The notes under the pieces: generated by a model
The model's input: only the letters and a program-made list of their open reading frames with translations
Told to the model about the DNA's origin: nothing
Database searches by the model: none
Made by a program: the position numbers and the translations under genes
Origin: Alphaproteobacteria bacterium
Lineage (GTDB): Bacteria > Pseudomonadota > Alphaproteobacteria > CAAGCB01 > CAG-977
DNA length: 64,000 bases
Direction: 5' to 3'
NCBI GenBank assembly: GCA_017616015.1
Contig: JAFZYY010000029.1
Span: 2,101-66,100 of the forward strand
Shown: piece by piece, positions 4,058-31,713 of the stretch
How the letters are laid out: the number at the start of each line of letters is the position of its first letter
Position numbering within the stretch: the first letter of the stretch is position 1

Positions 4058-4749
4058 AGAATGGTGCGGTCGGGTTTGGCCGCAGTGTAAGTATGGTCGC
4101 CTTGATTCGATTTAAAGAAAATGGATTTAATCCCCATTTTATTGGCGCCGTAAATATCGCGGTATAAATCGTTGCCGATAAAAATGACCTCTTCCGGTTT
4201 CATTTCCATTTTCTTCAAGGCTTTTTTGAACAGGCGATGATCCGGTTTGCGGTACCCGTAGTCGCTGGAAACCTGCAGCGGATCAAAATAATCGGCTAAA
4301 CCGACGGCATTCAGTTCGGCTTTCGCCCACAGAGACTGCCCGTCCGAAACGGCGGCCAGACGATATTTTTTTTGCAGTTTCTTCAGCGTCTTTTTCACTT
4401 CGGGATACAGTTTTAATTGAAGCAGGGAAGCGGCGCGAAACAGTTCCGCCGTGATTTCCGGCAAAAGCTTTAATTTTTTTGCAGGCAGTTCGTTTGTGTA
4501 CTTCGAGGCGTGTTTTTTTATGATTTCCTCAAACAGTTTTGCCGCGTCGAATTCGGGGTGTTCCTCCTGACTTTCGGCGCGCTGACGTTCGTTGATGTCG
4601 AAATAAATCCGGCACAATTCGTCCGGCGTCAGAGAAATGCCCTGATAAAGCAAAAAATTGCTGACGACGCGATACAGGTCTTTTTGCCCTTCGTCCGTCA
4701 GAATATCGGTGACGGTACCATTTATGTCAAAAATCAAACCGCGAATCAT
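4000..4749 (-). CDS. HAD-superfamily hydrolase
   Basis: MIRGLIFDINGTVTD carries the DxDGT motif I. Likely start at the MIRG ATG, 4-nt-coupled to the upstream kinase-like gene. Confidence 0.7.
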   Translation of the reverse strand: MIRGLIFDINGTVTDILTDEGQKDLYRVVSNFLLYQGISLTPDELCRIYFDINERQRAESQEEHPEFDAAKLFEEIIKKHASKYTNELPAKKLKLLPEITAELFRAASLLQLKLYPEVKKTLKKLQKKYRLAAVSDGQSLWAKAELNAVGLADYFDPLQVSSDYGYRKPDHRLFKKALKKMEMKPEEVIFIGNDLYRDIYGANKMGIKSIFFKSNQGDHTYTAAKPDRTILHFEELEDAVKSLAAEAER

Positions 4750-5756
4750 AGACTGCCCTCCTGAAAACATTTTTTTGCTTCTTCAATCAGCTGGCGCCGG
4801 TAATCGTCTTCAATCCAGAAATTTCTGCCGATGCGAAGCAATGTCAGTCCCATATAGAACGGAATGCGGCGGGTAATCGAAGCGAAGGCCGTATCCCGGT
4901 CGGGAAAACGGCTGGCATATTCCCATAAAAAATGGCCGATGAAAGGCTCCGCGGCGAATTCGTCGGGATAGTTCATTAAAAAGAAATGCTTTAATTCGCC
5001 GGCCATGCGTCCCACGTCAAAAATCCTGTCGGTATAGAAACATCTTTCCATATCGAACGTTTTTAAACCGTCTTCGCCGGAGAACATAAAGTTTTCGGGC
5101 GTGGCGTCGCCGTGAACCAAAACCTGGCAGTCTTCCCACATCTCCGGACGGCAACGCCAGGAATCGCACCACATGCCGAACTCGTCGATTTCGCCTTCCT
5201 CCAATATGGATTCGCACTGCTCGACCAGCTTTTCCATATAGTCGCAGGTCTGCGCGAAATCGACCTGATCCTGTGTCGCGGAACGGTTGTGCAATTCGGC
5301 GAAAAAGTGCGCTAAAACAGCTAATTTATCAAAAAGAAGTTCGCTGTTGTCTTCTTCGAAAGCTCTGTTGATGACACTGCTGAGCAATTCGCCTTCGCAG
5401 CATTCGACAATCAGCAGTTCGCCCAGCTCGGAATTTCTGCCTAACGGACGCGCGACATAAAAAGGTTCGCAGTCGAATCCGAAGCTTCGCACGGTTTCCA
5501 AACTCGTGTACTCGTTTTCCAGTTTTTCGGCCGCGGCTTCGCGGTCTTCTTCGCGGTCGGAATAGAAGTATTTTCCGATAACGCGCGAGCCGGTGTTGTT
5601 TTCTTCGTACATGTACACTTCATTGGAACCGTTCATGTGGTAAACCGTGTACGAAGGATCTTCCATAAAATCCGTCAGCTGAGGTTGAATGTCGTATTTC
5701 AGATAATCGTATAAAGGATCGTCAGTATTTAACAGTCCGAAATATTCTTTGGCCAT
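4746..5756 (-). CDS. Phosphotransferase-family (APH/choline-kinase-like) protein
   Basis: 336 aa. The catalytic-loop-like motif VLVHGDATPENFMF resembles the HGDxxxxN motif of the aminoglycoside/choline kinase fold. Confidence 0.55.
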   Translation of the reverse strand: MAKEYFGLLNTDDPLYDYLKYDIQPQLTDFMEDPSYTVYHMNGSNEVYMYEENNTGSRVIGKYFYSDREEDREAAAEKLENEYTSLETVRSFGFDCEPFYVARPLGRNSELGELLIVECCEGELLSSVINRAFEEDNSELLFDKLAVLAHFFAELHNRSATQDQVDFAQTCDYMEKLVEQCESILEEGEIDEFGMWCDSWRCRPEMWEDCQVLVHGDATPENFMFSGEDGLKTFDMERCFYTDRIFDVGRMAGELKHFFLMNYPDEFAAEPFIGHFLWEYASRFPDRDTAFASITRRIPFYMGLTLLRIGRNFWIEDDYRRQLIEEAKKCFQEGSL

Positions 5757-7605: not shown

Positions 7606-8598
7606 TTAATCTTCGCTTTTAAACGGACGGGTCAATAAGGCCGCGATGACGGAATCTACGGAAGCTTCCGCGTTCAAAATTTTCATCAGTCCTTCGCAGA
7701 TCGGCATTTCGACATTGACTTTCGCCGCGCGTTCCAGAACGGCTTTTGCGGTAAAAACGCCTTCCGCGACAGTGCTTTTCCCCGACAAAATTTCGGACAG
7801 GGAAAGACCTCTTCCCAAATCGAATCCGACGGAAAAATTGCGGGACTGAGAGCTGTTTGCCGTTAAGACCAGATCTCCCAGACCGGACAGTCCCATCAGC
7901 GTTTGCGCCTGTCCGCCCAAAGCGACCGCCAGGCGCGAAATTTCCGCTAATCCGCGCGTAATCAAAGCGGCGCGGGCGTTGTCCCCCGCTTTTTTACCGG
8001 CAATGATGCCGGCGGCGATGGCCATGACGTTTTTAACGGCGCCGCCGACCTGGACGCTGATTAAATCGGGGGAATAGTAGGGGCGGAAAGTCGGCGTTCC
8101 CAAAGTTTCCACCAATTCTTTGCCGATCGTTTCGTTTTTGCAGGCTAATGTTAAAGCTGTCGGTTTGCCTTGCGCCGCTTCTTCCGCAAACGTCGGACCC
8201 GATAAAACGGCAATTTCGGCCTGCGGCAGTTCTTCGGCCAGCATTTCGCTTAATAAAGCGCCGGATCCTTGCTCGATTCCCTTGGCGCAGATGACGGCAG
8301 GCAGTCCTTTCGGAAAGAAAGAACGCAAAGTGCGGCAGGTGGCGCGCAAAAATTGGGCGGGAATAACCATTAAAACGGCTTCGGTGTTCGCAACGGCTTG
8401 TTCCAGACTGTTCGTCGCCTCGATATTTCCGTTTAATTCAATGTCCGGCAGGAACAGCGTGTTTCTTCTTTTGGCGCGAATATCTTCGATTAATTCTTTT
8501 TCCCGCACCCACAGCGTTACTTTTTTACCGTTATTGGCCGCGATGTTGGCCAAAGCGGTTCCCCAAGCGCCTGCTCCCAGAACAGAAATTTTTTCCAT
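7606..8598 (-). CDS. gpsA: NAD(P)H-dependent glycerol-3-phosphate dehydrogenase
   Basis: MEKISVLGAGAWGTALA Rossmann motif. 330 aa. Confidence 0.9.
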   Translation of the reverse strand: MEKISVLGAGAWGTALANIAANNGKKVTLWVREKELIEDIRAKRRNTLFLPDIELNGNIEATNSLEQAVANTEAVLMVIPAQFLRATCRTLRSFFPKGLPAVICAKGIEQGSGALLSEMLAEELPQAEIAVLSGPTFAEEAAQGKPTALTLACKNETIGKELVETLGTPTFRPYYSPDLISVQVGGAVKNVMAIAAGIIAGKKAGDNARAALITRGLAEISRLAVALGGQAQTLMGLSGLGDLVLTANSSQSRNFSVGFDLGRGLSLSEILSGKSTVAEGVFTAKAVLERAAKVNVEMPICEGLMKILNAEASVDSVIAALLTRPFKSED

Positions 8599-8610
8599 AA
8601 AAAACTCCTT

Positions 8611-9660
8611 TTACCGTTTTGCCGAAGGATCCAAAGGCCAACGCGGCCGGGGACTGAAGTCCAGCGGATCGAATAATCCGGCCTGACAGCGTTCCATTCC
8701 CGCCCACGCGACCATGGCGCCGTTATCCGTGCAAAGGTTCATCGGCGCCGCCGCAAAAGTCAGTTTATACCTTTCGACCAGTTTTTCCAAGGCTTGACGC
8801 AAAGCTTTGTTTGCCGCGACGCCGCCGGCGACAACCAGATGCGTTCCCTGCGGGCATTGCTTTTTGAAAAGTTTGATGCCGTTTTTCAGTCTGGAGCACA
8901 AAGAATCCAGAACCGCTTTTTGAAAACAGGCGCATAAGTCGGCTTTGTCCTGTTCCGACAAAACGGCGTTTTCTATTGTTCCATCGGGCGAAAAGCCTTC
9001 AATGATATGCCGGACGGCGGTTTTTAATCCCGAAAAAGACAAATCGCACCCCGGTTTGCCGACCATCGGGCGCGGCAGTTCAAAGCGGTTTTCATCACCG
9101 GATAAGGCGTATTGTTCTATTTTCGGACCGCCGGGGTAACCCAGTCCCATCATTTTGGCGGCTTTGTCAAAAGCTTCTCCCGCCGCGTCGTCAACGGTGG
9201 CGCCCAGCCGTTTGAATTTTCCGATTCCTTGCGCAATCAGGATTTGGCAATGTCCGCCGGACGTTAATAATAATAAATAAGGAAAAGGAACGTTCTGTGT
9301 CAGCCGCGCCGTTAAAGCATGCGCTTCCAGATGGTTGACGGCAATAAAGGGCAGATTATGAACGGCGGCGATCGCTTTTGCCGTCATCACGCCGACAATG
9401 ACACCGCCGATCAGTCCGGGACCCGACGAAGCGGCGACAGCGTCTAAATCTTTGAAAGTCAGTCCCGCCTGATCCAAAGCGGCTTTCACGATGACACCGA
9501 CCTGCTGCAAATGGGCGCGCGCGGCTATTTCCGGAACGACGCCGCCGAAAATCTGATGCTCGGCCTGCGAAAAAACGACGGAAGACAACAATTCTTTTTT
9601 ATCGGAAACAATAGCCGCAGCCGTTTCGTCACAGCTGGATTCTATCCCCAAAACGCGCAT
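8611..9660 (-). CDS. tsaD: tRNA N6-adenosine threonylcarbamoyltransferase
   Basis: MRVLGIESSCDETAAAIV, the Kae1/TsaD signature. About 350 aa. Confidence 0.9.
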   Translation of the reverse strand: MRVLGIESSCDETAAAIVSDKKELLSSVVFSQAEHQIFGGVVPEIAARAHLQQVGVIVKAALDQAGLTFKDLDAVAASSGPGLIGGVIVGVMTAKAIAAVHNLPFIAVNHLEAHALTARLTQNVPFPYLLLLTSGGHCQILIAQGIGKFKRLGATVDDAAGEAFDKAAKMMGLGYPGGPKIEQYALSGDENRFELPRPMVGKPGCDLSFSGLKTAVRHIIEGFSPDGTIENAVLSEQDKADLCACFQKAVLDSLCSRLKNGIKLFKKQCPQGTHLVVAGGVAANKALRQALEKLVERYKLTFAAAPMNLCTDNGAMVAWAGMERCQAGLFDPLDFSPRPRWPLDPSAKR

Positions 9661-25503: not shown

Positions 25504-25803
25504 CTATTCAGCGATATCCGTGATCTTGACGATCGAGATATACTGACGATGACCGTTTTTACGGCGATAGCCCTGACGACGTTTTTTCTTGAAAACGATA
25601 ACCGTGTCATCACGGGTCTGCTTGACGACCTTAGCGGAAACTTTGGCGCCGGCGATTGTCGGTGTGCCGATTTTTTCATCTAAAGCAAGCACGTTGTCAA
25701 ATGTCACAGTAGAGCCGACTTCCGCGTTGAGCTTTTCAACCACGATTACATCGTCTTTTGCGACCTTATACTGCTTGCCGCCTGTCTTAATAACTGCGAA
25801 CAT
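25504..25803 (-). CDS. rplU: 50S ribosomal protein L21
   Basis: [14 protein letters not shown]. Confidence 0.95.
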
Positions 25804-25919
25804 TTCATCACCATCTTAGAAAATCTATACCGAAAGCGGAATCGCTTCCGCTTTAAAGAGAGCTCTTTATAGCCAGAAATTTAAGGATTTGTCAACAGGA
25901 TATTTATCTTTGACCGTAT

Positions 25920-26828
25920 TTATTTTTGTCTGATGACGATATTGGAAGCGACTTTTCGCACCAGACGGGTAAAAGGCAGAGACTGAATCCAGACTTTTCC
26001 CGGTCCTTTTAAAGAGGCAAAAAACACGCCGGAACCGCCAAAAAATTGGGATTTAAGGCTACCGGCTCCTTCAATGTCAAAATCGACGGACGATTCAAAA
26101 GCGGCCAGACAGCCGACGTCCGTTTGTAAGATTTCGTCATCGTCTAACTCGATTTCGGCGATTGCTCCGCCGGCGTTAATGAAAACGACTCCGTCTCCCG
26201 TTAAGCGTTGCATGATGAATCCGGCGCCGCCGAATAATCCGGTCAGAATTTTCTTTTGAAAATAAATATCTATGTCAATATGCGATTCTGCGCACAGAAA
26301 ACTGTCTCTTTGGCAAATAATCTCTCCGCCCAAAGAGCTCAGAGAAACGGGAATGATTTTGCCGGGATACGGCGCAGCAAAAGCCACCCTTGCGGCGCCT
26401 GACTGAGACGTATTCGTAAAAACGGACAAGAAAGCTCTTTCGCCGGACAGAATTCGTTTTCCGGCGCCCATCATGCGACCGAAGAACCCTTTGTCGCCAT
26501 GACCGCCGAGCATCGCTTCCAGAATAACGGGATCGTCCTTGAAAATCATTGACCCCGGTTCGGCAATAACGGATTCTTGAGGGGCAAGAGTAATTTCAAC
26601 GTACTGTAAATCGTCCCCGTATAGTTTAAACGATAAGTCCGAACGAAACGTAGTGGCAGGAAAAGAATTGCCGACATTTGAATTTAAGACGGCAAATTTG
26701 CTTGCCGGCGCCCAATCCGTCATTCCTTCGCGCCAAACCAGACAGTCGGGATTTTTCCCTATGAATTTAACGGCGTCTTCTGTCGAAAACGGGCCGTATT
26801 TTTGATTTCCGGATAAGCAGAACCACAT
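25920..26828 (-). CDS. DUF4339 (GYF-like) N-terminal domain fused to an AIM24/TIGR00266-family domain
   Basis: The N-terminus KYGPFSTEDAVKFIGKNPDCLVWREGMTDWAPA has a GYF-like pattern. The C-terminal approximately 230 aa resemble the AIM24/DUF124 beta-rich domain. Confidence 0.5.
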   Translation of the reverse strand: MWFCLSGNQKYGPFSTEDAVKFIGKNPDCLVWREGMTDWAPASKFAVLNSNVGNSFPATTFRSDLSFKLYGDDLQYVEITLAPQESVIAEPGSMIFKDDPVILEAMLGGHGDKGFFGRMMGAGKRILSGERAFLSVFTNTSQSGAARVAFAAPYPGKIIPVSLSSLGGEIICQRDSFLCAESHIDIDIYFQKKILTGLFGGAGFIMQRLTGDGVVFINAGGAIAEIELDDDEILQTDVGCLAAFESSVDFDIEGAGSLKSQFFGGSGVFFASLKGPGKVWIQSLPFTRLVRKVASNIVIRQK

Positions 26829-26845
26829 AGCGAAAGAATCCTTTC

Positions 26846-28069
26846 CTAATAGTTGTACAATAATGTTGTGCCGCCGCGTCGGTTGCGCGGATTTTTAGAA
26901 AGCAAATATTGAATATACCGTCCCTGGAACAGGGTAATACCGTATTTCTTTGCGAATTGCATGGCGTTTTCGTTGTCAACGCGGCATAAAATAGCCCTGT
27001 TATCACCGATATTTGATAACAAATCTTCCAGTTCAGTATTGCTTTGTAAAATGTCTGCCAGATCCGAAGACCATGCCAGTTTTAAATAATCGGCTCCCAG
27101 TCGTTCCCGATCAATGAATTCCAAAGTATTTCCTGTTACGCCGTCGATACATATTTTATATCCCAGATTTTGAGCGTAATCTCTGGCGATTAGATAAGAA
27201 TTCAGGTCGCTGAGAATATCCGTCGGCTGTAATTCCAGTACGATTGTGTTTTTTAAATTAGATAAAATATTGCTGTCGAAATTTCTGAATTCTTCCGAAA
27301 GAATGGTCGAAATGTTCAGGTTTAAAGAAAACGCTTTTCTGAACGCTCCGTCGTCGTGTCGAGACACGCTGCTCAGAACCCGCTTATCCAAAGTTTCCGT
27401 CAGATCCTGAAACAGCCACGGCGTAGCCGTTAAGGAGACGCCGGGAAGAATGGATTCGCCTAAATCGGCAATGGAAACGAATACTTCTTCAAACAAAGGC
27501 TGCGGATACGTTTCGTCCAAAACAATACAAACGGACTGACTGCGTATTATGTTCGAAAAGTCGGTGTTTTGCAGAGCTTTGGAAACGCGCGCCAGCATTT
27601 CCGGCGTAAACAGCTTTTCATTCTTTTCTATTGTCGGAGGTATGACAAATTTTTGGCGTTCTTTTTTCGTCTGAGGTTTTCTGGAAGGTCCTTTGCCGAT
27701 TCTTGAAATTTCATGTTTCAACGCGTCTGTATCCTGCGGCAGTTTATAATGCTTTTCCTGAAATTGCTCTTTGCCGGACATTTTTATTTTGCTTGAGAAA
27801 TGCAACCAGGCTCGGATTAAAATCGTTTTAAGAAAGCTTTCGCTGATTTTGGAATTGTAAACAATGAATATGTCATCGTTTTTTAAACAAAAAGCCTGCC
27901 CGTCAAGACCTAACGTATTATAGAAATCGTTTAAAACCAACATCAGCAGGCTGTCATCGCGCGCGGCTTCGTCAATCAGAGATATTTTCAGCTGTAATAC
28001 GGACGCTTCTTTATTGGATAATAAAAAAGTGGCCAAGAAACCGTGAAGCTTTTCTTCCTGATCAATCAT
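26846..28069 (-). CDS. Degenerate GGDEF-like plus EAL-like tandem-domain protein (paralog B), predicted enzymatically inactive
   Basis: The C-terminal half follows the EAL fold pattern. ICIDGVTGN corresponds to DDFGTGY, YLKLAWS to LKIDRSF, and AILCRVDNENAMQFAKKYGITLFQGRYI to vvAEGVEt...GcdyaQGYlf. The N-terminal half follows GGDEF spacing (…LKNDDIFIVYNS… in place of RYGGEEFvvl). The start at the MIDQ ATG abuts the upstream paralog's stop. Confidence 0.5.
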   Translation of the reverse strand: MIDQEEKLHGFLATFLLSNKEASVLQLKISLIDEAARDDSLLMLVLNDFYNTLGLDGQAFCLKNDDIFIVYNSKISESFLKTILIRAWLHFSSKIKMSGKEQFQEKHYKLPQDTDALKHEISRIGKGPSRKPQTKKERQKFVIPPTIEKNEKLFTPEMLARVSKALQNTDFSNIIRSQSVCIVLDETYPQPLFEEVFVSIADLGESILPGVSLTATPWLFQDLTETLDKRVLSSVSRHDDGAFRKAFSLNLNISTILSEEFRNFDSNILSNLKNTIVLELQPTDILSDLNSYLIARDYAQNLGYKICIDGVTGNTLEFIDRERLGADYLKLAWSSDLADILQSNTELEDLLSNIGDNRAILCRVDNENAMQFAKKYGITLFQGRYIQYLLSKNPRNRRGGTTLLYNY

Positions 28070-29355
28070 ACGCTTTTTTTCCTTTTGTATTCGATCGGCA
28101 AATCCAAATTGGAAGGTATCAGGCAATCCGCCCGCTGAGCGCCGGCTATACCCGCTTTTCTGGAAGCGCACGCTTCTTTTGTGCAATGTTTCTTTTCAGG
28201 ACAGCCTTTCCTGATTTTAGCCGTGGTCAAAGCGTCTATAAAATATCCTTGAAAACGGGTGATTTTATGCATTAAAGCCCAAGCAAGAGCAGTTTCGTCT
28301 TCACAACGCATTAAAATCAAACGATTCGGATCAATGTCTTTCAGTCCTTTTTCAAGCTTTTTGGATTCGGCGGCGTTTATTAAAGCCGGCGACCAGTTAA
28401 GCTTCATTAAATCGGAATTCAGCTTTTTCATATCCATGAATTCAAAAGAAATCGGCGGAAGACCGTCTATCAGAATTTGATGTCCCGCTTCATGCAACAA
28501 ATCCCGGGCAACGATGAAATTGCGCGTGTTCTGTATGATGTCCATCAGCTGAACTTCGACAATAACGGTCATTTGTTCTGGCGCCTGGGAAAGGAAGTTT
28601 TCAAAGGCGGGGGTAAAAATCGTGGAAATGTTTAAATTTAAAGAAATATTTTTCGGTGTATGAAGAAATAACTCTTTGGAAATTCCTAACATTCTTTTAT
28701 CCAGCGTTTCACTTAAATGCTGGAAAAGCCACCTGTTGGACAGGACGTTTACGTCCGGCGCAATCGCTTTTTTCAAATCCGCCATGGAAGTGAAGTATTC
28801 CAAAAACAAAGAAGACAATTTTCCCTGCGGCGTTATTTGAATGGCTTCCTGCCGGCGAATGATTTTTAAGATGTTGAACCCCTGAATGTTGCGCAGAATA
28901 GCGTCCAAATGTTCGGGGGCCAGAGGGACTTCCGCTTTTTGCGGTTGTTGCTGCCGATGAACGTTTTCCAAATGTTCTTTGGCAAAAGCCATAACCGTTT
29001 CGAAATCGTTTTCAAGCGCGTAAATTTGTACAAAATCGTCGGGGTGAGCCGCGGCAAAAGAATCGGATTGAAAAATATGCCGAACGGACTCCGCTATATC
29101 ACCGGCGCGTTGCGGCGATAAAGCCTGACCAATGATAACAATGTCGTTGTTGGAAAGTAAGAATAAACCAGATTGAGTTTTGATAACGGTATCATTTATC
29201 GCACTCAATGCTATTTTTACCTGGCGCGGCGATCTGTTTGTGGGATTTAAGGCTGACAGACGAATAATAATCACCGTTGAATTCATGTTTATAGATTCAA
29301 GGCGCTTTAATTTATCTATCAGCCTTTGTTCTGCCTCGGGTATGGGCTTAGCCAC
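28066..29355 (-). CDS. Degenerate GGDEF-like plus EAL-like tandem-domain protein (paralog A), predicted enzymatically inactive
   Basis: Clear paralog of the downstream gene (…NLNISTIF…, …ILIDGLPPISFEFMDMKKL…, …LILMRCEDETALAWALMHKITRFQGYFIDAL). The GGDEF-like N-terminus has LLSNNDIVIIGQA in place of GG(D/E)EF. Confidence 0.5.
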   Translation of the reverse strand: MAKPIPEAEQRLIDKLKRLESINMNSTVIIIRLSALNPTNRSPRQVKIALSAINDTVIKTQSGLFLLSNNDIVIIGQALSPQRAGDIAESVRHIFQSDSFAAAHPDDFVQIYALENDFETVMAFAKEHLENVHRQQQPQKAEVPLAPEHLDAILRNIQGFNILKIIRRQEAIQITPQGKLSSLFLEYFTSMADLKKAIAPDVNVLSNRWLFQHLSETLDKRMLGISKELFLHTPKNISLNLNISTIFTPAFENFLSQAPEQMTVIVEVQLMDIIQNTRNFIVARDLLHEAGHQILIDGLPPISFEFMDMKKLNSDLMKLNWSPALINAAESKKLEKGLKDIDPNRLILMRCEDETALAWALMHKITRFQGYFIDALTTAKIRKGCPEKKHCTKEACASRKAGIAGAQRADCLIPSNLDLPIEYKRKKSV

Positions 29356-29373
29356 GCTTAAAAAAATCCCTTT

Positions 29374-30504
29374 TTATTTCAGATACAGATGAACCTCTGT
29401 CGTTTTGACGGAATCTTTGTTCGCTCTGGAAGAATAAATGCGACTGGCAGGTAATCCCATGGATAACAAAGCTTCACGTACGGCGTCCGCATTTTTAGCC
29501 GCCTCCGCCTCGCCTGTTTTCGTATTAAACGGGCTGACGGCGACAACTTCAAAATGCGTGGACGGCCGCTTGTCCAAAGCCGTTTTGACGGCTTTGTATA
29601 AAGGCTGTTCAAATTCCACTTTCTGTTTGTCAAAGCGGATAATCATCAAAGGACGCCGCCCGGTTAAGTCGGCTTCCGGCAGATCGTCCGTCGAAGAAAA
29701 ATAAGCCGGCGCGGTTTGCAACGTTGTTGCCGGTAAAGGCGCCTGCGTTTGCGTTCTGCCTCTGATCATGACGGAACCGTTTTGGATTTCGGTGCTTAAC
29801 AGATTGATGTTTTGGCTTTCAGAGCTGAAATATTGCTGCTGACGCGTAATCTGCAAAGTCAAATCCGAGCTTAGACGATTTAAAGAAACAATCGTCTGAT
29901 TGGTTTCATCTTCCAATAATTTGAGGTTTTCGTGATCGATTTCCATTGCTCCGGGAACGGAGAACGTTTCGCGGATTGTTTCCAGCAAAGCGTCAAGTTC
30001 GTTCTTTGCTCTGGCTGTTTCGCTTGATAATTTAGCGGTTTCGGACATGTTCTTGTCGGAACCGGCCAGCAAAGCCGAAGCTTGCTTCCACATTTCAACT
30101 AATTCCGGATTCCCCGGCGTAGTGCCGTTTTGCAGGCGGGCGCGGATACGGGCGATATGTTCATAATAACGACCGGATTCTTCGGCGCTTTTAGCTTTTA
30201 ATTCGCGGAATGTCTGCGAATCCTTTTTTATGTTTTTCTGAACCTGACGCAACTTGGCATCGATTGCGGCAACTTTTTTGCTGACTTCCGAAACAACAGA
30301 AGAATTAGAAGCATACTTCGGCGCTTCGGCGACGGCTTTGCGAGATTCAATGCTTGTTTCGGCGGGAGCGACCGTTTCGGAGCGAGGCGCTTCCATAGAA
30401 AAATCATCATCGTAATAATGATCCGTTGACGTGTTTGAGTTCATAGCGCAACCGGCAAGCGTCAGCAATGCGGCGGCTAAAGAGAATCTTTTCAGAATGG
30501 ACAT
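29374..30504 (-). CDS. Lipoprotein with coiled-coil region and degenerate OmpA/MotB-like C-terminal domain
   Basis: Signal peptide with lipobox LTLAGC. Central heptad-repeat region. C-terminus (…IIRFDKQKVEF…FEVVAVSP…ADAVREALLSMGLPASRIYSS…) follows the OmpA-C fold spacing but lacks the canonical TD..N..R residues. Confidence 0.45.
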   Translation of the reverse strand: MSILKRFSLAAALLTLAGCAMNSNTSTDHYYDDDFSMEAPRSETVAPAETSIESRKAVAEAPKYASNSSVVSEVSKKVAAIDAKLRQVQKNIKKDSQTFRELKAKSAEESGRYYEHIARIRARLQNGTTPGNPELVEMWKQASALLAGSDKNMSETAKLSSETARAKNELDALLETIRETFSVPGAMEIDHENLKLLEDETNQTIVSLNRLSSDLTLQITRQQQYFSSESQNINLLSTEIQNGSVMIRGRTQTQAPLPATTLQTAPAYFSSTDDLPEADLTGRRPLMIIRFDKQKVEFEQPLYKAVKTALDKRPSTHFEVVAVSPFNTKTGEAEAAKNADAVREALLSMGLPASRIYSSRANKDSVKTTEVHLYLK

Positions 30505-30658
30505 AGTTTTGAATACCTTAAAAGTTTAAGAAAACTGCGCAATTTTCCATGCCGCTTTTTTAAAAAAACGACCTCTTTAGAATGTACCGAGAAATAGCAG
30601 TTTTGCAAGAGGTTTTATCAATAATAATAAATTTGTTGTGTTTTTTGCAAAAAAAGTC

Positions 30659-30699: not shown

Positions 30700-30776
30700 G
30701 CGCCCATAGCTCAACTGGATAGAGCATCTGACTACGGATCAGAAGGCTGAGAGTTCGAATCTTTCTGGGCGCGCCA
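30700..30776 (+). tRNA. tRNA-Arg (anticodon ACG)
   Basis: Acceptor GCGCCCA/TGGGCGC, D-arm GCTCaactggatAGAGC, anticodon stem-loop TCTGActACGgaTCAGA, T-arm GAGAGttcgaatCTTTC, CCA encoded. Confidence 0.9.
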
Positions 30777-30781
30777 AAAAA

Positions 30782-30808
30782 ATCCTCCGGTAACGGGGGA
30801 TTTTTTTG
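30782..30808 (+). terminator. Rho-independent terminator after tRNA-Arg (copy 1 of a duplicated terminator)
   Basis: ATCCTCCGgtaaCGGGGGAT followed by TTTTTTT. The identical sequence recurs at 31567-31593. Confidence 0.65.
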
Positions 30809-30836
30809 TAGTAAGCCCTAAGATTAGAACTCTTCC

Positions 30837-30920
30837 GAGAGTTCGGTGACCGAAGGGAACGACGCCGAGAGGCGTCCCCGTCAGGGGTAAGCGAAGCGAA
30901 CAATCTTTCTGGGTGCGCCA
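30837..30920 (+). repeat. Degenerate tRNA-Arg 3' fragment (T-arm to CCA) carrying a 55-nt insertion in the T-loop, copy A
   Basis: GAGAGTTCG-[55 nt: GTGACCGAAGGGAACGACGCCGAGAGGCGTCCCCGTCAGGGGTAAGCGAAGCGAAC]-AATCTTTCTGGGtGCGCCA. Identical to copy B apart from one mismatch. Confidence 0.8.
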
Positions 30921-30924
30921 AAAA

Positions 30925-30958
30925 TCTCCGCAATGTCAACGACTTGCGGGATTTTTTT
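30925..30958 (+). terminator. Hairpin plus T-run after repeat copy A
   Basis: CCGCAAtgtcaacgacTTGCGG followed by GATTTTTTTATT. Confidence 0.45.
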
Positions 30959-31460: not shown

Positions 31461-31563
31461 GACTGCGGATCAAAAGGCTGAGAGTTCGGTGACCGAAGGG
31501 AACGACGCCGAGAGGCGTCCCCGTCAGGGGTAAGCGAAGCGAACAATCTTTCTGGGCGCGCCA
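31461..31563 (+). repeat. Degenerate tRNA-Arg 3' fragment (anticodon loop to CCA) carrying the same 55-nt T-loop insertion, copy B
   Basis: GACTgCGGATCAaAAGGCTGAGAGTTCG-[same 55 nt]-AATCTTTCTGGGCGCGCCA. Followed at 31564-31604 by an exact copy of the tRNA-Arg downstream terminator, AAAAAAATCCTCCGGTAACGGGGGATTTTTTTGTAGTAAGCC. Confidence 0.8.
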
Positions 31564-31713
31564 AAAAAATCCTCCGGTAACGGGGGATTTTTTTGTAGTA
31601 AGCCTCAAAACTTTTTGTTGCTTCAAAGGTATCCTTTTTTACAGCGCGCCTTGTTTTGACACGAAAGGCAAATTTCTGTAAGCTCCTGAAAAACAAAAAA
31701 TGAAAGGCGCTTC

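Follow-up and report, generated by a model that had tools for sequence, protein, structure and literature searches.

Degenerate GGDEF-EAL proteins are common, and each of the few studied so far (FimX, LapD, CsrD and YdiV) has shown a distinct signalling mechanism. FimX and LapD, the degenerate c-di-GMP receptors of Pseudomonas and Xanthomonas, carry REC/PAS domains and TM/HAMP/periplasmic domains, respectively. CsrD and PdeK-type proteins of E. coli are likewise degenerate dual-domain proteins, located in the membrane and equipped with HAMP-like regions. YdiV and STM1697, the single-domain EAL-like anti-FlhD4C2 factors of enterobacteria, have lost most of the nucleotide- and metal-binding residues and are not known to bind c-di-GMP. 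In YkuI of Bacillus subtilis, which has a C-terminal PAS-like domain, the full catalytic set is kept; this and similar EAL proteins have an intact-looking site and no measured activity. The Arg of the EALxR motif contacts a phosphate of c-di-GMP.

The ligands of the second metal in EAL enzymes are the second Asp of the DDFGTG motif, Asp183 and Glu217; activation of the nucleophile requires both metals, and FimX, which lacks the metal-coordinating DDFGTG, is inactive; the activity of EAL phosphodiesterases is regulated via dimerisation of the domain (PMC5301497).

Here we describe a pair of paralogous genes, A and B, found in a 64-kb stretch of DNA (the whole stretch that was analysed is referred to as the window). 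Like FimX and LapD, their products combine a GGDEF-like and an EAL-like domain with degenerate catalytic motifs. They differ from FimX and LapD in the absence of the REC-PAS or TM-periplasmic-HAMP input domains (both proteins, 407-429 aa long, start at the GGDEF-like domain), in a far more diverged GGDEF-like domain that gives no HMM match, in keeping the first-metal ligands and the Lys, in being encoded by an obligatory paralogous gene pair and in the Cys4 tail of A. Unlike YkuI, they lack the second-metal ligands and possess an N-terminal GGDEF-like domain; unlike YdiV and STM1697, they consist of two domains and keep nucleotide- and metal-binding residues; unlike CsrD and PdeK, they are soluble (the NCBIfam CsrD profile matches B only faintly, E 0.011 and 14 bits against a family cut-off of 663). 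With the canonical two-metal EAL enzymes (RocR, PdeL/YahA, PdeA CC3396, RbdA and PA3825) A and B share the fold and the Gln, Glu, Asn, Glu, Asp, Lys and Gln-Gly positions, whereas the family as a whole has other residues in place of the second DDFGTG Asp, the Asp that follows the Lys, the EGVE Glu and the EALxR Arg. No Pfam or NCBIfam family spans the A/B architecture and literature searches returned no description of the pair, in agreement with the first-pass annotation of this DNA, which had recognised no named system.

What sets the family apart is that it always occurs as a coupled paralog pair, that each member retains one metal site and lacks the other, that one member carries the Cys4 motif and that it is widespread. 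Its hosts include Magnetospirillum, which is amenable to genetic manipulation, and abundant uncultured gut and rumen Alphaproteobacteria. Solving the role of A and B would extend c-di-GMP biology by a further type of receptor or enzyme, and would provide a function for two conserved 'hypothetical' genes of gut Alphaproteobacteria.

Organization of the gene cluster

The presence of four tightly packed minus-strand ORFs, proposed in the first-pass annotation, was borne out by the ORF coordinates (Table 1). The stop codon of the lipoprotein gene is separated by 18 nt from the start of A, and the stop of B by 17 nt from the start of the AIM24 gene. The stop of A had been described as abutting the ATG of B; instead, the two codons overlap by 4 nt, and this ATGA overlap is, as far as can be read from the sequence, a translational-coupling junction. 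Downstream of the cluster lie rplU, rpmA, obg and proB. Promoter-like sequences were found upstream of the lipoprotein gene and before rplU, the latter suggesting that rplU is transcribed separately.

Table 1. Features of the A-B locus, in positions of the window
Feature	Position	Strand	Description
Lipoprotein gene	29374-30504	minus	376 aa
Paralog A	28066-29355	minus	429 aa, GTG start; GGDEF-like N-domain, EAL-fold domain, Cys4 tail
Paralog B	26846-28069	minus	407 aa; GGDEF-like N-domain, EAL-fold domain, no Cys tail
GYF_2 + AIM24 protein gene	25920-26828	minus	302 aa
ATGA overlap	28066-28069	minus	stop of A (TGA) and start of B (ATG); from sequence and ORF coordinates
Promoter-like site upstream of lipoprotein gene	30621-30651	minus	TTGCAA-18-TATTAT; consensus match only
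Promoter-like site before rplU	25866-25895	minus	TTGACA-18-TATAAA, in a 116-nt gap; from sequence
N-terminal domain of A	28948-29334	minus	aa 8-136; GGDEF-like fold, S68-N-N-D71-I hairpin at the GGDEF position
N-terminal domain of B	27695-28060	minus	aa 4-125; GGDEF-like, K-N-D-D66-I hairpin
EAL-fold domain of A	28207-28917	minus	aa 147-383; from alignments
EAL-fold domain of B	26897-27604	minus	aa 156-391; from Pfam EAL and alignments
Cys4 motif of A	28096-28203	minus	C385-x5-C391-x4-C396-x14-C411...LD, A-specific, C-terminal; from alignment of the A family

The EAL-fold domains are half-degenerate

A and B had been called clear paralogs, and BLASTP aligned them with 37% identity over 248 aa (E 8e-46). 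Both contain a domain with the EAL-type (beta/alpha) barrel fold. B belongs to the Pfam EAL family (PF00563, 34.6 bits, gathering cut-off 31.3). A scores 16.5 bits, below this cut-off; many of its orthologs have a precomputed PF00563 match, and its identity to B over the domain is 37%. Searches of the PDB sequences gave weak EAL matches with the A-family profile (E 0.001-0.005) and none at E <= 0.01 with that of the B family.

The residue map was drawn from three independent alignments, hhalign in local mode being among the methods. Retained are the QP-motif Gln (Q169 in A, Q178 in B), the EAL Glu (E186, E195), the Asn (N240/N242, N250/N252), the first ExxE Glu (E267, E279), the leading Asp of DD (D297, D309), the Lys (K318, K330) and QG (Q369-G370, Q382-G383). 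Both proteins have lost the EALxR Arg, the second DD Asp, the KxD Asp and the leading Glu of EGVE. Thus, the first-metal ligands are present and all second-metal ligands are replaced, the replacements being D-G, K-L-N (A) or K-L-A (B), and M/C-R-x-E/D, and the loop that bears DDFGTG is degenerate in both paralogs.

This map changes the picture of two 'dead' proteins given by the first-pass annotation. The stretches SNRWL (A) and TATPWL (B), which it had taken for the remnants of EAL, are the FIPxAE region, and the catalytic Glu, thought to be replaced, is kept in E186-Y-F of A and E195-V-F of B. It had correctly equated DDFGTG with DGLPPIS in A and DGVTGN in B. For the KxD and EGVE motifs, both reported as lost, it was right about the Asp and the first Glu, but the Lys is kept and so is the last acidic residue of the latter motif (MRCE in A, CRVD in B). 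Since the Glu, the Lys and this last acidic residue are retained, the EAL domains are half-degenerate rather than emptied of catalytic residues.

The pattern is not peculiar to this locus. When 91 family representatives, clustered at 50% identity, were surveyed, about 90% of them displayed the signature of kept and lost residues. Among the retained residues, the EAL Glu and the QG Gln each occur in 85, the Lys in 83, the first Glu of ExxE and the first Asp of DD each in 81, and the Asn in 79; the QG Gly is invariant (91). The second DD position was never Asp, the general-base position was never Glu, and the EALxR position was Ser or Ala in 78/91 and never Arg. 'Dead' is therefore an overstatement, as the residues of the first metal site, the Lys and the Gln are strongly conserved in both paralogs. 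The more cautious statement that A and B are unlikely to be conventional enzymes is supported by the family-wide loss of the second-metal ligands and of the EALxR Arg.

That four metal ligands and the Lys are strongly conserved in both paralogs would fit chemistry better than a pure binding role, which counts against the sensor reading proposed below; the receptor FimX, by comparison, lacks the metal-coordinating DDFGTG. A and B, singly or as a heterodimer, might be active atypical hydrolases that rely on the invariant Lys and on the one metal site still present; their substrate would be c-di-GMP, pGpG, some other dinucleotide (cyclic or linear) or a different phosphodiester. We consider this unlikely: all three second-metal ligands and the general-base Glu are missing, the DDFGTG loop is degenerate (see above), and both metals have been reported as necessary for activation of the nucleophile (PMC5301497).

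The N-terminal domains are GGDEF-like

The N-terminal domains of A and B align within one profile. They have the GGDEF / nucleotidyl-cyclase fold, with the topology alpha-beta-alpha-beta-beta-alpha-beta-alpha in A, and hhalign aligned the domain with GGDEF in the expected register, with a score above those of all 21 controls (P 0.0013). The GG(D/E)EF motif is replaced by SNNDI in A and KNDDI in B, an earlier assignment that hhalign reproduced, and its last acidic residue alone is kept. This residue (D71 in A) is present in 90/91 representatives, whereas the metal-binding Asp of beta-1 is replaced by Ser (S34 in A) in 89/91. There is no RxxD inhibitory site five residues upstream of the motif position. 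Pfam GGDEF (PF00990) gave no match at E <= 10 in 29 N-terminal domains or in full-length A and B, and the N-domain profile found no GGDEF protein among the PDB sequences. The GGDEF likeness noted in the first-pass annotation is thus upheld by register and fold, but not by the Pfam and PDB profile searches.

The Cys4 tail of A

Of 64 loci compared, 56 encode the Cys4 motif in the first gene (A) and none in the second (B). The tail is a putative metal site, probably for Zn or an Fe-S cluster. It matches no known family in PDB or Pfam; a faint match to AZUL (E 0.013) was rejected.

Pairing and distribution

In each of the 82 loci with room for both genes, B follows A in the same orientation. Many bacteria of the Rhodospirillales type have the pair, Magnetospirillum and Telmatospirillum as well as MAGs from gut and rumen, and at least 440 genomes at species level contain the family. 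The N-domain profile gave at least 1000 matches among clusters at 50% identity (631 at E <= 1e-10); the best 150 were mostly 400-460 aa long or were shorter fragments, and carried the domain N-terminally. One polypeptide in which A is fused to the EAL domain of B was found; it is encoded on a 1x-coverage contig. Clustering of the neighbours over 84 loci detected no third conserved partner, only clade-level neighbours (Metallophos in 17 loci, hldE in 15, an ABC ATPase in 18). The conserved unit is A then B only.

Proposed function

In the reading that we put forward, and whose chances we rate as even, A and B constitute a non-hydrolytic heterodimeric nucleotide sensor with two half-degenerate EAL sites, probably for c-di-GMP. 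Its core would be the two-gene unit, whose coupled translation would supply two soluble cytoplasmic paralogs, in each of which the EAL-fold domain is joined to a GGDEF-like domain that has diverged strongly and is non-catalytic. The paralogs would associate via the usual EAL-EAL interface into a heterodimer, which we infer from gene order alone. This complex would bind a nucleotide, most likely c-di-GMP, together with one metal ion, would not hydrolyse it at a useful rate, and would pass the signal on via protein contacts in the manner of FimX and LapD. The Cys4 tail of A may provide a redox or metal input, or may be merely structural. The lipoprotein and GYF-AIM24 genes, presumably co-transcribed with the pair in the gut/rumen clade only, would not belong to the core.

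The loss of the EALxR Arg could abolish c-di-GMP binding and counts against the sensor reading, as does the failure of the N-terminal domains to match GGDEF profiles. A and B might also be nucleotide-free protein-binding adaptors or anti-activators like YdiV and STM1697, with the old active-site residues kept for structure. We regard such a role as quite improbable.

A more specific form of the sensor reading, which we hold to be doubtful, is an obligate heterodimeric pseudo-phosphodiesterase in which the two EAL sites, with one metal each, would read a nucleotide, and an Fe-S or Zn site formed by the Cys4 motif of A would couple this to redox, oxygen or iron status; a variant of it would be a new one-metal catalysis acting on an unrecognised substrate. 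If the pseudo-phosphodiesterase reading were true, the pair would represent a new class of second-messenger sensors conserved in Rhodospirillales-type Alphaproteobacteria. A scan of the 64-kb window for a diguanylate cyclase or other GGDEF or EAL genes found none with crude E. coli-derived HMMs, which also missed A and B; as the window is a small part of the genome, this speaks only weakly against a c-di-GMP sensor.

Neighbouring genes

The first-pass annotation had viewed the lipoprotein, A, B and the GYF-AIM24 protein as possibly one envelope-anchored, c-di-GMP-related module; from its place, such a module might act on the rplU-obg string. The short gaps and the A/B overlap are compatible with such a unit, and about 25 loci of the gut/rumen clade to which the window belongs show the order lipoprotein-A-B, followed by rplU, with lipoprotein identities of 43-74% and with the AIM24 gene in most of them. 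However, AIM24 is absent from some syntenic loci (L004 and L027), and outside the clade the pair never adjoins the lipoprotein, AIM24 or rplU: in Magnetospirillum-type loci it is placed elsewhere than before rplU, and the lipoprotein homologs of Phaeospirillum and of a Rhodospirillaceae genome are standalone genes in unrelated contexts. Synteny thus retains the A-B pair only, and the neighbourhood of lipoprotein, AIM24 and rplU is clade-specific. A, B and the AIM24 protein have no membrane segment, whereas the lipoprotein is exported, which makes direct anchoring topologically unlikely. The position ahead of rplU, which had been called unusual, reflects clade-level synteny, and rplU has its own promoter-like site. 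For these reasons we think it very unlikely that the four genes form one such module.

The first protein is a lipoprotein, as had been claimed: it has a signal peptide and an LAGC lipobox (Cys19), and a coiled-coil-like middle part. The OmpA-C likeness also ascribed to it proved marginal. The C-terminus (aa 280-376) scored 15.3 bits with PF00691 (cut-off 27.2, E 0.026), with matches in 2/13 homologs, and a profile search of the PDB gave no OmpA-like match. Aligned with Pal, OmpA and MotB by hhalign, it scored 23.7 (P 0.002), the maximum with shuffled sequences being 14.9; in this alignment the Arg-Arg of Pal, at the peptidoglycan-binding position, corresponds to Lys-Asn.

An anti-phage defence role was considered and rejected: PADLOC reported nothing for A, B or the AIM24 protein, and for the lipoprotein coiled-coil-type matches only (LmuB, JetC).

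The assignment of the fourth gene to the GYF/AIM24 family was confirmed by Pfam GYF_2 (aa 2-46, E 6e-12, 45.6 bits) and AIM24 (aa 67-284, E 6e-65, 219 bits). TIGR00266 matched at 100.2 bits, all profile cut-offs were passed, and the protein matched PDB entry 1yox (PA3696) with an E-value of 1e-65.

Gene organization

The minus strand of the window carries four open reading frames in head-to-tail order, encoding a lipoprotein, the paralogs A and B, and a GYF_2 plus AIM24 protein. Gaps of 18 nt separate the lipoprotein gene from A, 17 nt B from the fourth gene, and 116 nt the fourth gene from rplU. The stop codon of A and the start codon of B, described as abutting in the first-pass annotation, overlap by 4 nt (ATGA). 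A protein from an uncultured Alphaproteobacteria MAG matches paralog A with 100% identity. In the rplU leader, a promoter-like site (TTGACA-18-TATAAA) precedes the hairpin AAAGCGGAAGCGATTCCGCTTT; the leader matched no Rfam family.

Features of the cluster and its flanks in the window
Feature	Position	Strand	Remarks
Lipoprotein	29374-30504	minus	ORF, 376 aa
Paralog A	28066-29355	minus	ORF, 429 aa, GTG start
Paralog B	26846-28069	minus	ORF, 407 aa
GYF_2 + AIM24 protein	25920-26828	minus	ORF, 302 aa
rplU leader	25804-25919	minus	
rplU	25504-25803		downstream of the fourth gene, followed by rpmA, obg, proB
tRNA-Arg(ACG)	30700-30776	plus	directly upstream of the cluster
Partial tRNA-Arg copies	30837-30929, 31461-31604		3' part
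tRNA terminator hairpin	30758-30817, 31545-31604		exact duplicates
BSnc120 (Rfam)	31489-31605		overlapping match, below threshold

Paralogy and fold of A and B

A and B are 37% identical across 248 C-terminal residues (E 8e-46). Their N-terminal ~135 residues can be aligned together as well; the two share an invariant Ser in their first strand and an Asp, likewise invariant, within a beta-hairpin. The AlphaFold2 models of A and B (pLDDT 87.3 and 76.4, respectively) follow the same plan, in which an N-terminal alpha-beta-alpha-beta-beta-alpha-beta-alpha domain is followed by a helical linker and a beta/alpha barrel.

When the Pfam comparison suggested in the first-pass annotation was carried out, the EAL assignment was borne out for B (34.6 bits, above the cut-off of 31.3) and fell below the cut-off for A (16.5 bits), and the GGDEF assignment found no match. 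A GGDEF signal was absent from searches with the full-length proteins, with 29 individual N-domains and with a profile against PDB sequences, and the N-domains carry no GG(D/E)EF motif, beta-1 Asp or RxxD site. In profile-profile comparison with five E. coli GGDEF domains the N-domain family scored 26.1 (P 0.0013, 136 columns), against 16.5 for the reversed template and a maximum of 18.4 for twenty column shuffles, and S68-N-N-D-I72 of A fell in exact register with G-G-D-E-F. Because this score exceeds the controls while Pfam is silent, we accept a GGDEF-like, extremely diverged fold for the N-domain and reject its membership in the Pfam GGDEF family, to which there is no sequence-level match.

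Active site of the EAL domain

The active-site residues were mapped by three agreeing alignments: phmmer against RbdA, the family profile against RbdA and LapD, and hhalign against E. coli PdeH, PdeL and PdeK. SNRWL of A and TATPWL of B, previously taken for the EAL motif, both match the FIPxAE region instead. Retention was counted in 91 full-length family representatives clustered at 50% identity.

EAL-domain positions in A and B and their retention among the family representatives
Position	A	B	State	Census
Gln of QP	Q169	Q178	kept	
EAL	E186-Y-F	E195-V-F	Glu kept	Glu 85/91
Arg of EALxR	Ser	Ser	lost	Arg 0/91
Asn	N240/N242	N250/N252	kept	79/91
ExxE, first Glu	E267	E279	kept	81/91
ExxE, second Glu			lost	
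DDFGTG	D297-G-LPPIS	D309-G-VTGN	first Asp kept, second lost	first Asp 81/91, second Asp 0/91
Lys	K318	K330	kept	83/91
Asp of KxD	KLN	KLA	lost	
EGVE	M-R-C-E	C-R-V-D	first Glu lost	
Base position				Glu 0/91
QG	Q369-G370	Q382-G383	kept	Gly 91/91

These alignments indicate that the first metal site is retained in A and B and the second is missing. The second metal is coordinated by the second Asp of DDFGTG, Asp183 and Glu217, and activation of the nucleophile needs both metals (PMC5301497); with the second site missing, ordinary EAL catalysis would not be expected from either protein. Judged by the census, the half-retained site is a property of the whole A/B family. The strong conservation of the metal ligands and the Lys would also suit an atypical one-metal hydrolase, a reading that we regard as unlikely.

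Distribution and pairing

The A family is present in 440 species-level genomes. Among them are MAGs of gut and rumen Alphaproteobacteria as well as Magnetospirillum, Paramagnetospirillum, Telmatospirillum, Insolitispirillum and Thalassospiraceae. At all loci where the contig continues (82/82), A is followed by B on the same strand. The N-domain profile, searched against 1.84 billion cluster representatives, matched at least 1000 proteins with E <= 0.001, of which 631 reached E <= 1e-10. Most of the 150 best among these matches are 400-460 aa long or are shorter fragments, and they carry the domain N-terminally.

In the locus L096 a 712-aa ORF (P0302, 4001-6139) combines an A-like protein devoid of the Cys tail with a B-like EAL domain lacking the N-domain of B. 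The ORF could reflect a genuine deletion-fusion or a fault of assembly, and it was given little weight because of the 1x coverage recorded in the contig name. The alphaproteobacterial A-B locus was also found in bins that bear the names Limosilactobacillus gorillae and Candidatus Sulfotelmatobacter (L025, L039 and L043), one of which (L025) has the complete lipoprotein-A-B-AIM24-rplU synteny and a 97% identical rplU; these contigs are probably mis-binned.

A-type genes at 56 of 64 loci encode the C-terminal motif C-x5-C-x4-C-x14-C...LD (C385, C391, C396 and C411 in A), which never occurred in B-type genes in the same comparison and matched nothing known.

The evidence supports the view that the pair consists of conserved, translationally coupled soluble pseudo-enzymes of GGDEF-EAL ancestry. 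We infer heterodimer formation, ligand identity and absence of catalysis each in turn: A and B would most likely form a non-hydrolytic, heterodimeric nucleotide sensor, the ligand most likely being c-di-GMP plus one metal, and the Cys4 tail of A could either bring in a second input or bind metal for structural purposes. A YdiV-type role for the pair, as an adaptor acting independently of nucleotides, appears somewhat less probable even than one-metal hydrolysis.

The architecture is covered by no Pfam, NCBIfam or PADLOC family, members are named 'hypothetical protein' or 'EAL domain-containing protein' at NCBI, and a literature search found no published study of the pair. It falls within an established class, the degenerate GGDEF-EAL proteins, and does not constitute a new type of system; its interest lies in the obligate pairing, the half-retained site and the Cys4 tail.

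Lipoprotein and GYF-AIM24 neighbours

The lipoprotein has a signal peptide and a LAGC lipobox, the latter kept in homologs, and its middle region gave coiled-coil-type matches only. The C-terminal ~100 residues matched OmpA-C marginally (Pfam E 0.026, in 2 of 13 homologs) and had no match in a PDB profile search; with hhalign they scored above shuffles against Pal, OmpA and MotB (P 0.002), Lys-Asn standing opposite the Arg-Arg of Pal. The region is marginally OmpA-C-like. The family (306 matches, no Pfam domain) extends to Magnetospirillum and Phaeospirillum, and two distant homologs that were looked up (Phaeospirillum and a Rhodospirillaceae MAG) are solitary in unrelated contexts.

The AIM24 gene is missing from some otherwise syntenic loci, and at three others (L020, L022 and L024; about 4300-5030, 8508-9242 and 8499-9230) its product, of ~243 aa and encoded downstream of B, has no N-terminal GYF_2, showing that the GYF fusion is variable even inside the clade. 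The order lipoprotein-A-B-(AIM24)-rplU is limited to ~25 loci, all from the clade to which the window belongs. In the distant clade, Magnetospirillum-type loci (L001, L002, L096 and ~15 more) have other recurring neighbours: a divergent upstream Metallophos phosphoesterase gene (17 loci), hldE of the heptose pathway upstream or nearby (15 loci), and a downstream ABC-transporter ATPase and permease (18 loci). No membrane-like segment was found in A, B or the AIM24 protein, so that the exported lipoprotein is unlikely to anchor them directly. The first-pass proposal that all four genes form one envelope module gains no support from the comparative data outside one clade, and we consider it the least probable of the alternatives.

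tRNA-Arg repeats beside the cluster

Two partial copies of the tRNA-Arg(ACG) gene follow it within 900 nt, one beginning at the anticodon stem and the other at the T-stem, and both carry an identical 56-nt insert in the T-loop (GTGACCGAAGGG...GCGAAGCGAAC). They may be remnants of the att site of an integrative element, or else a repeat derived from the tRNA.
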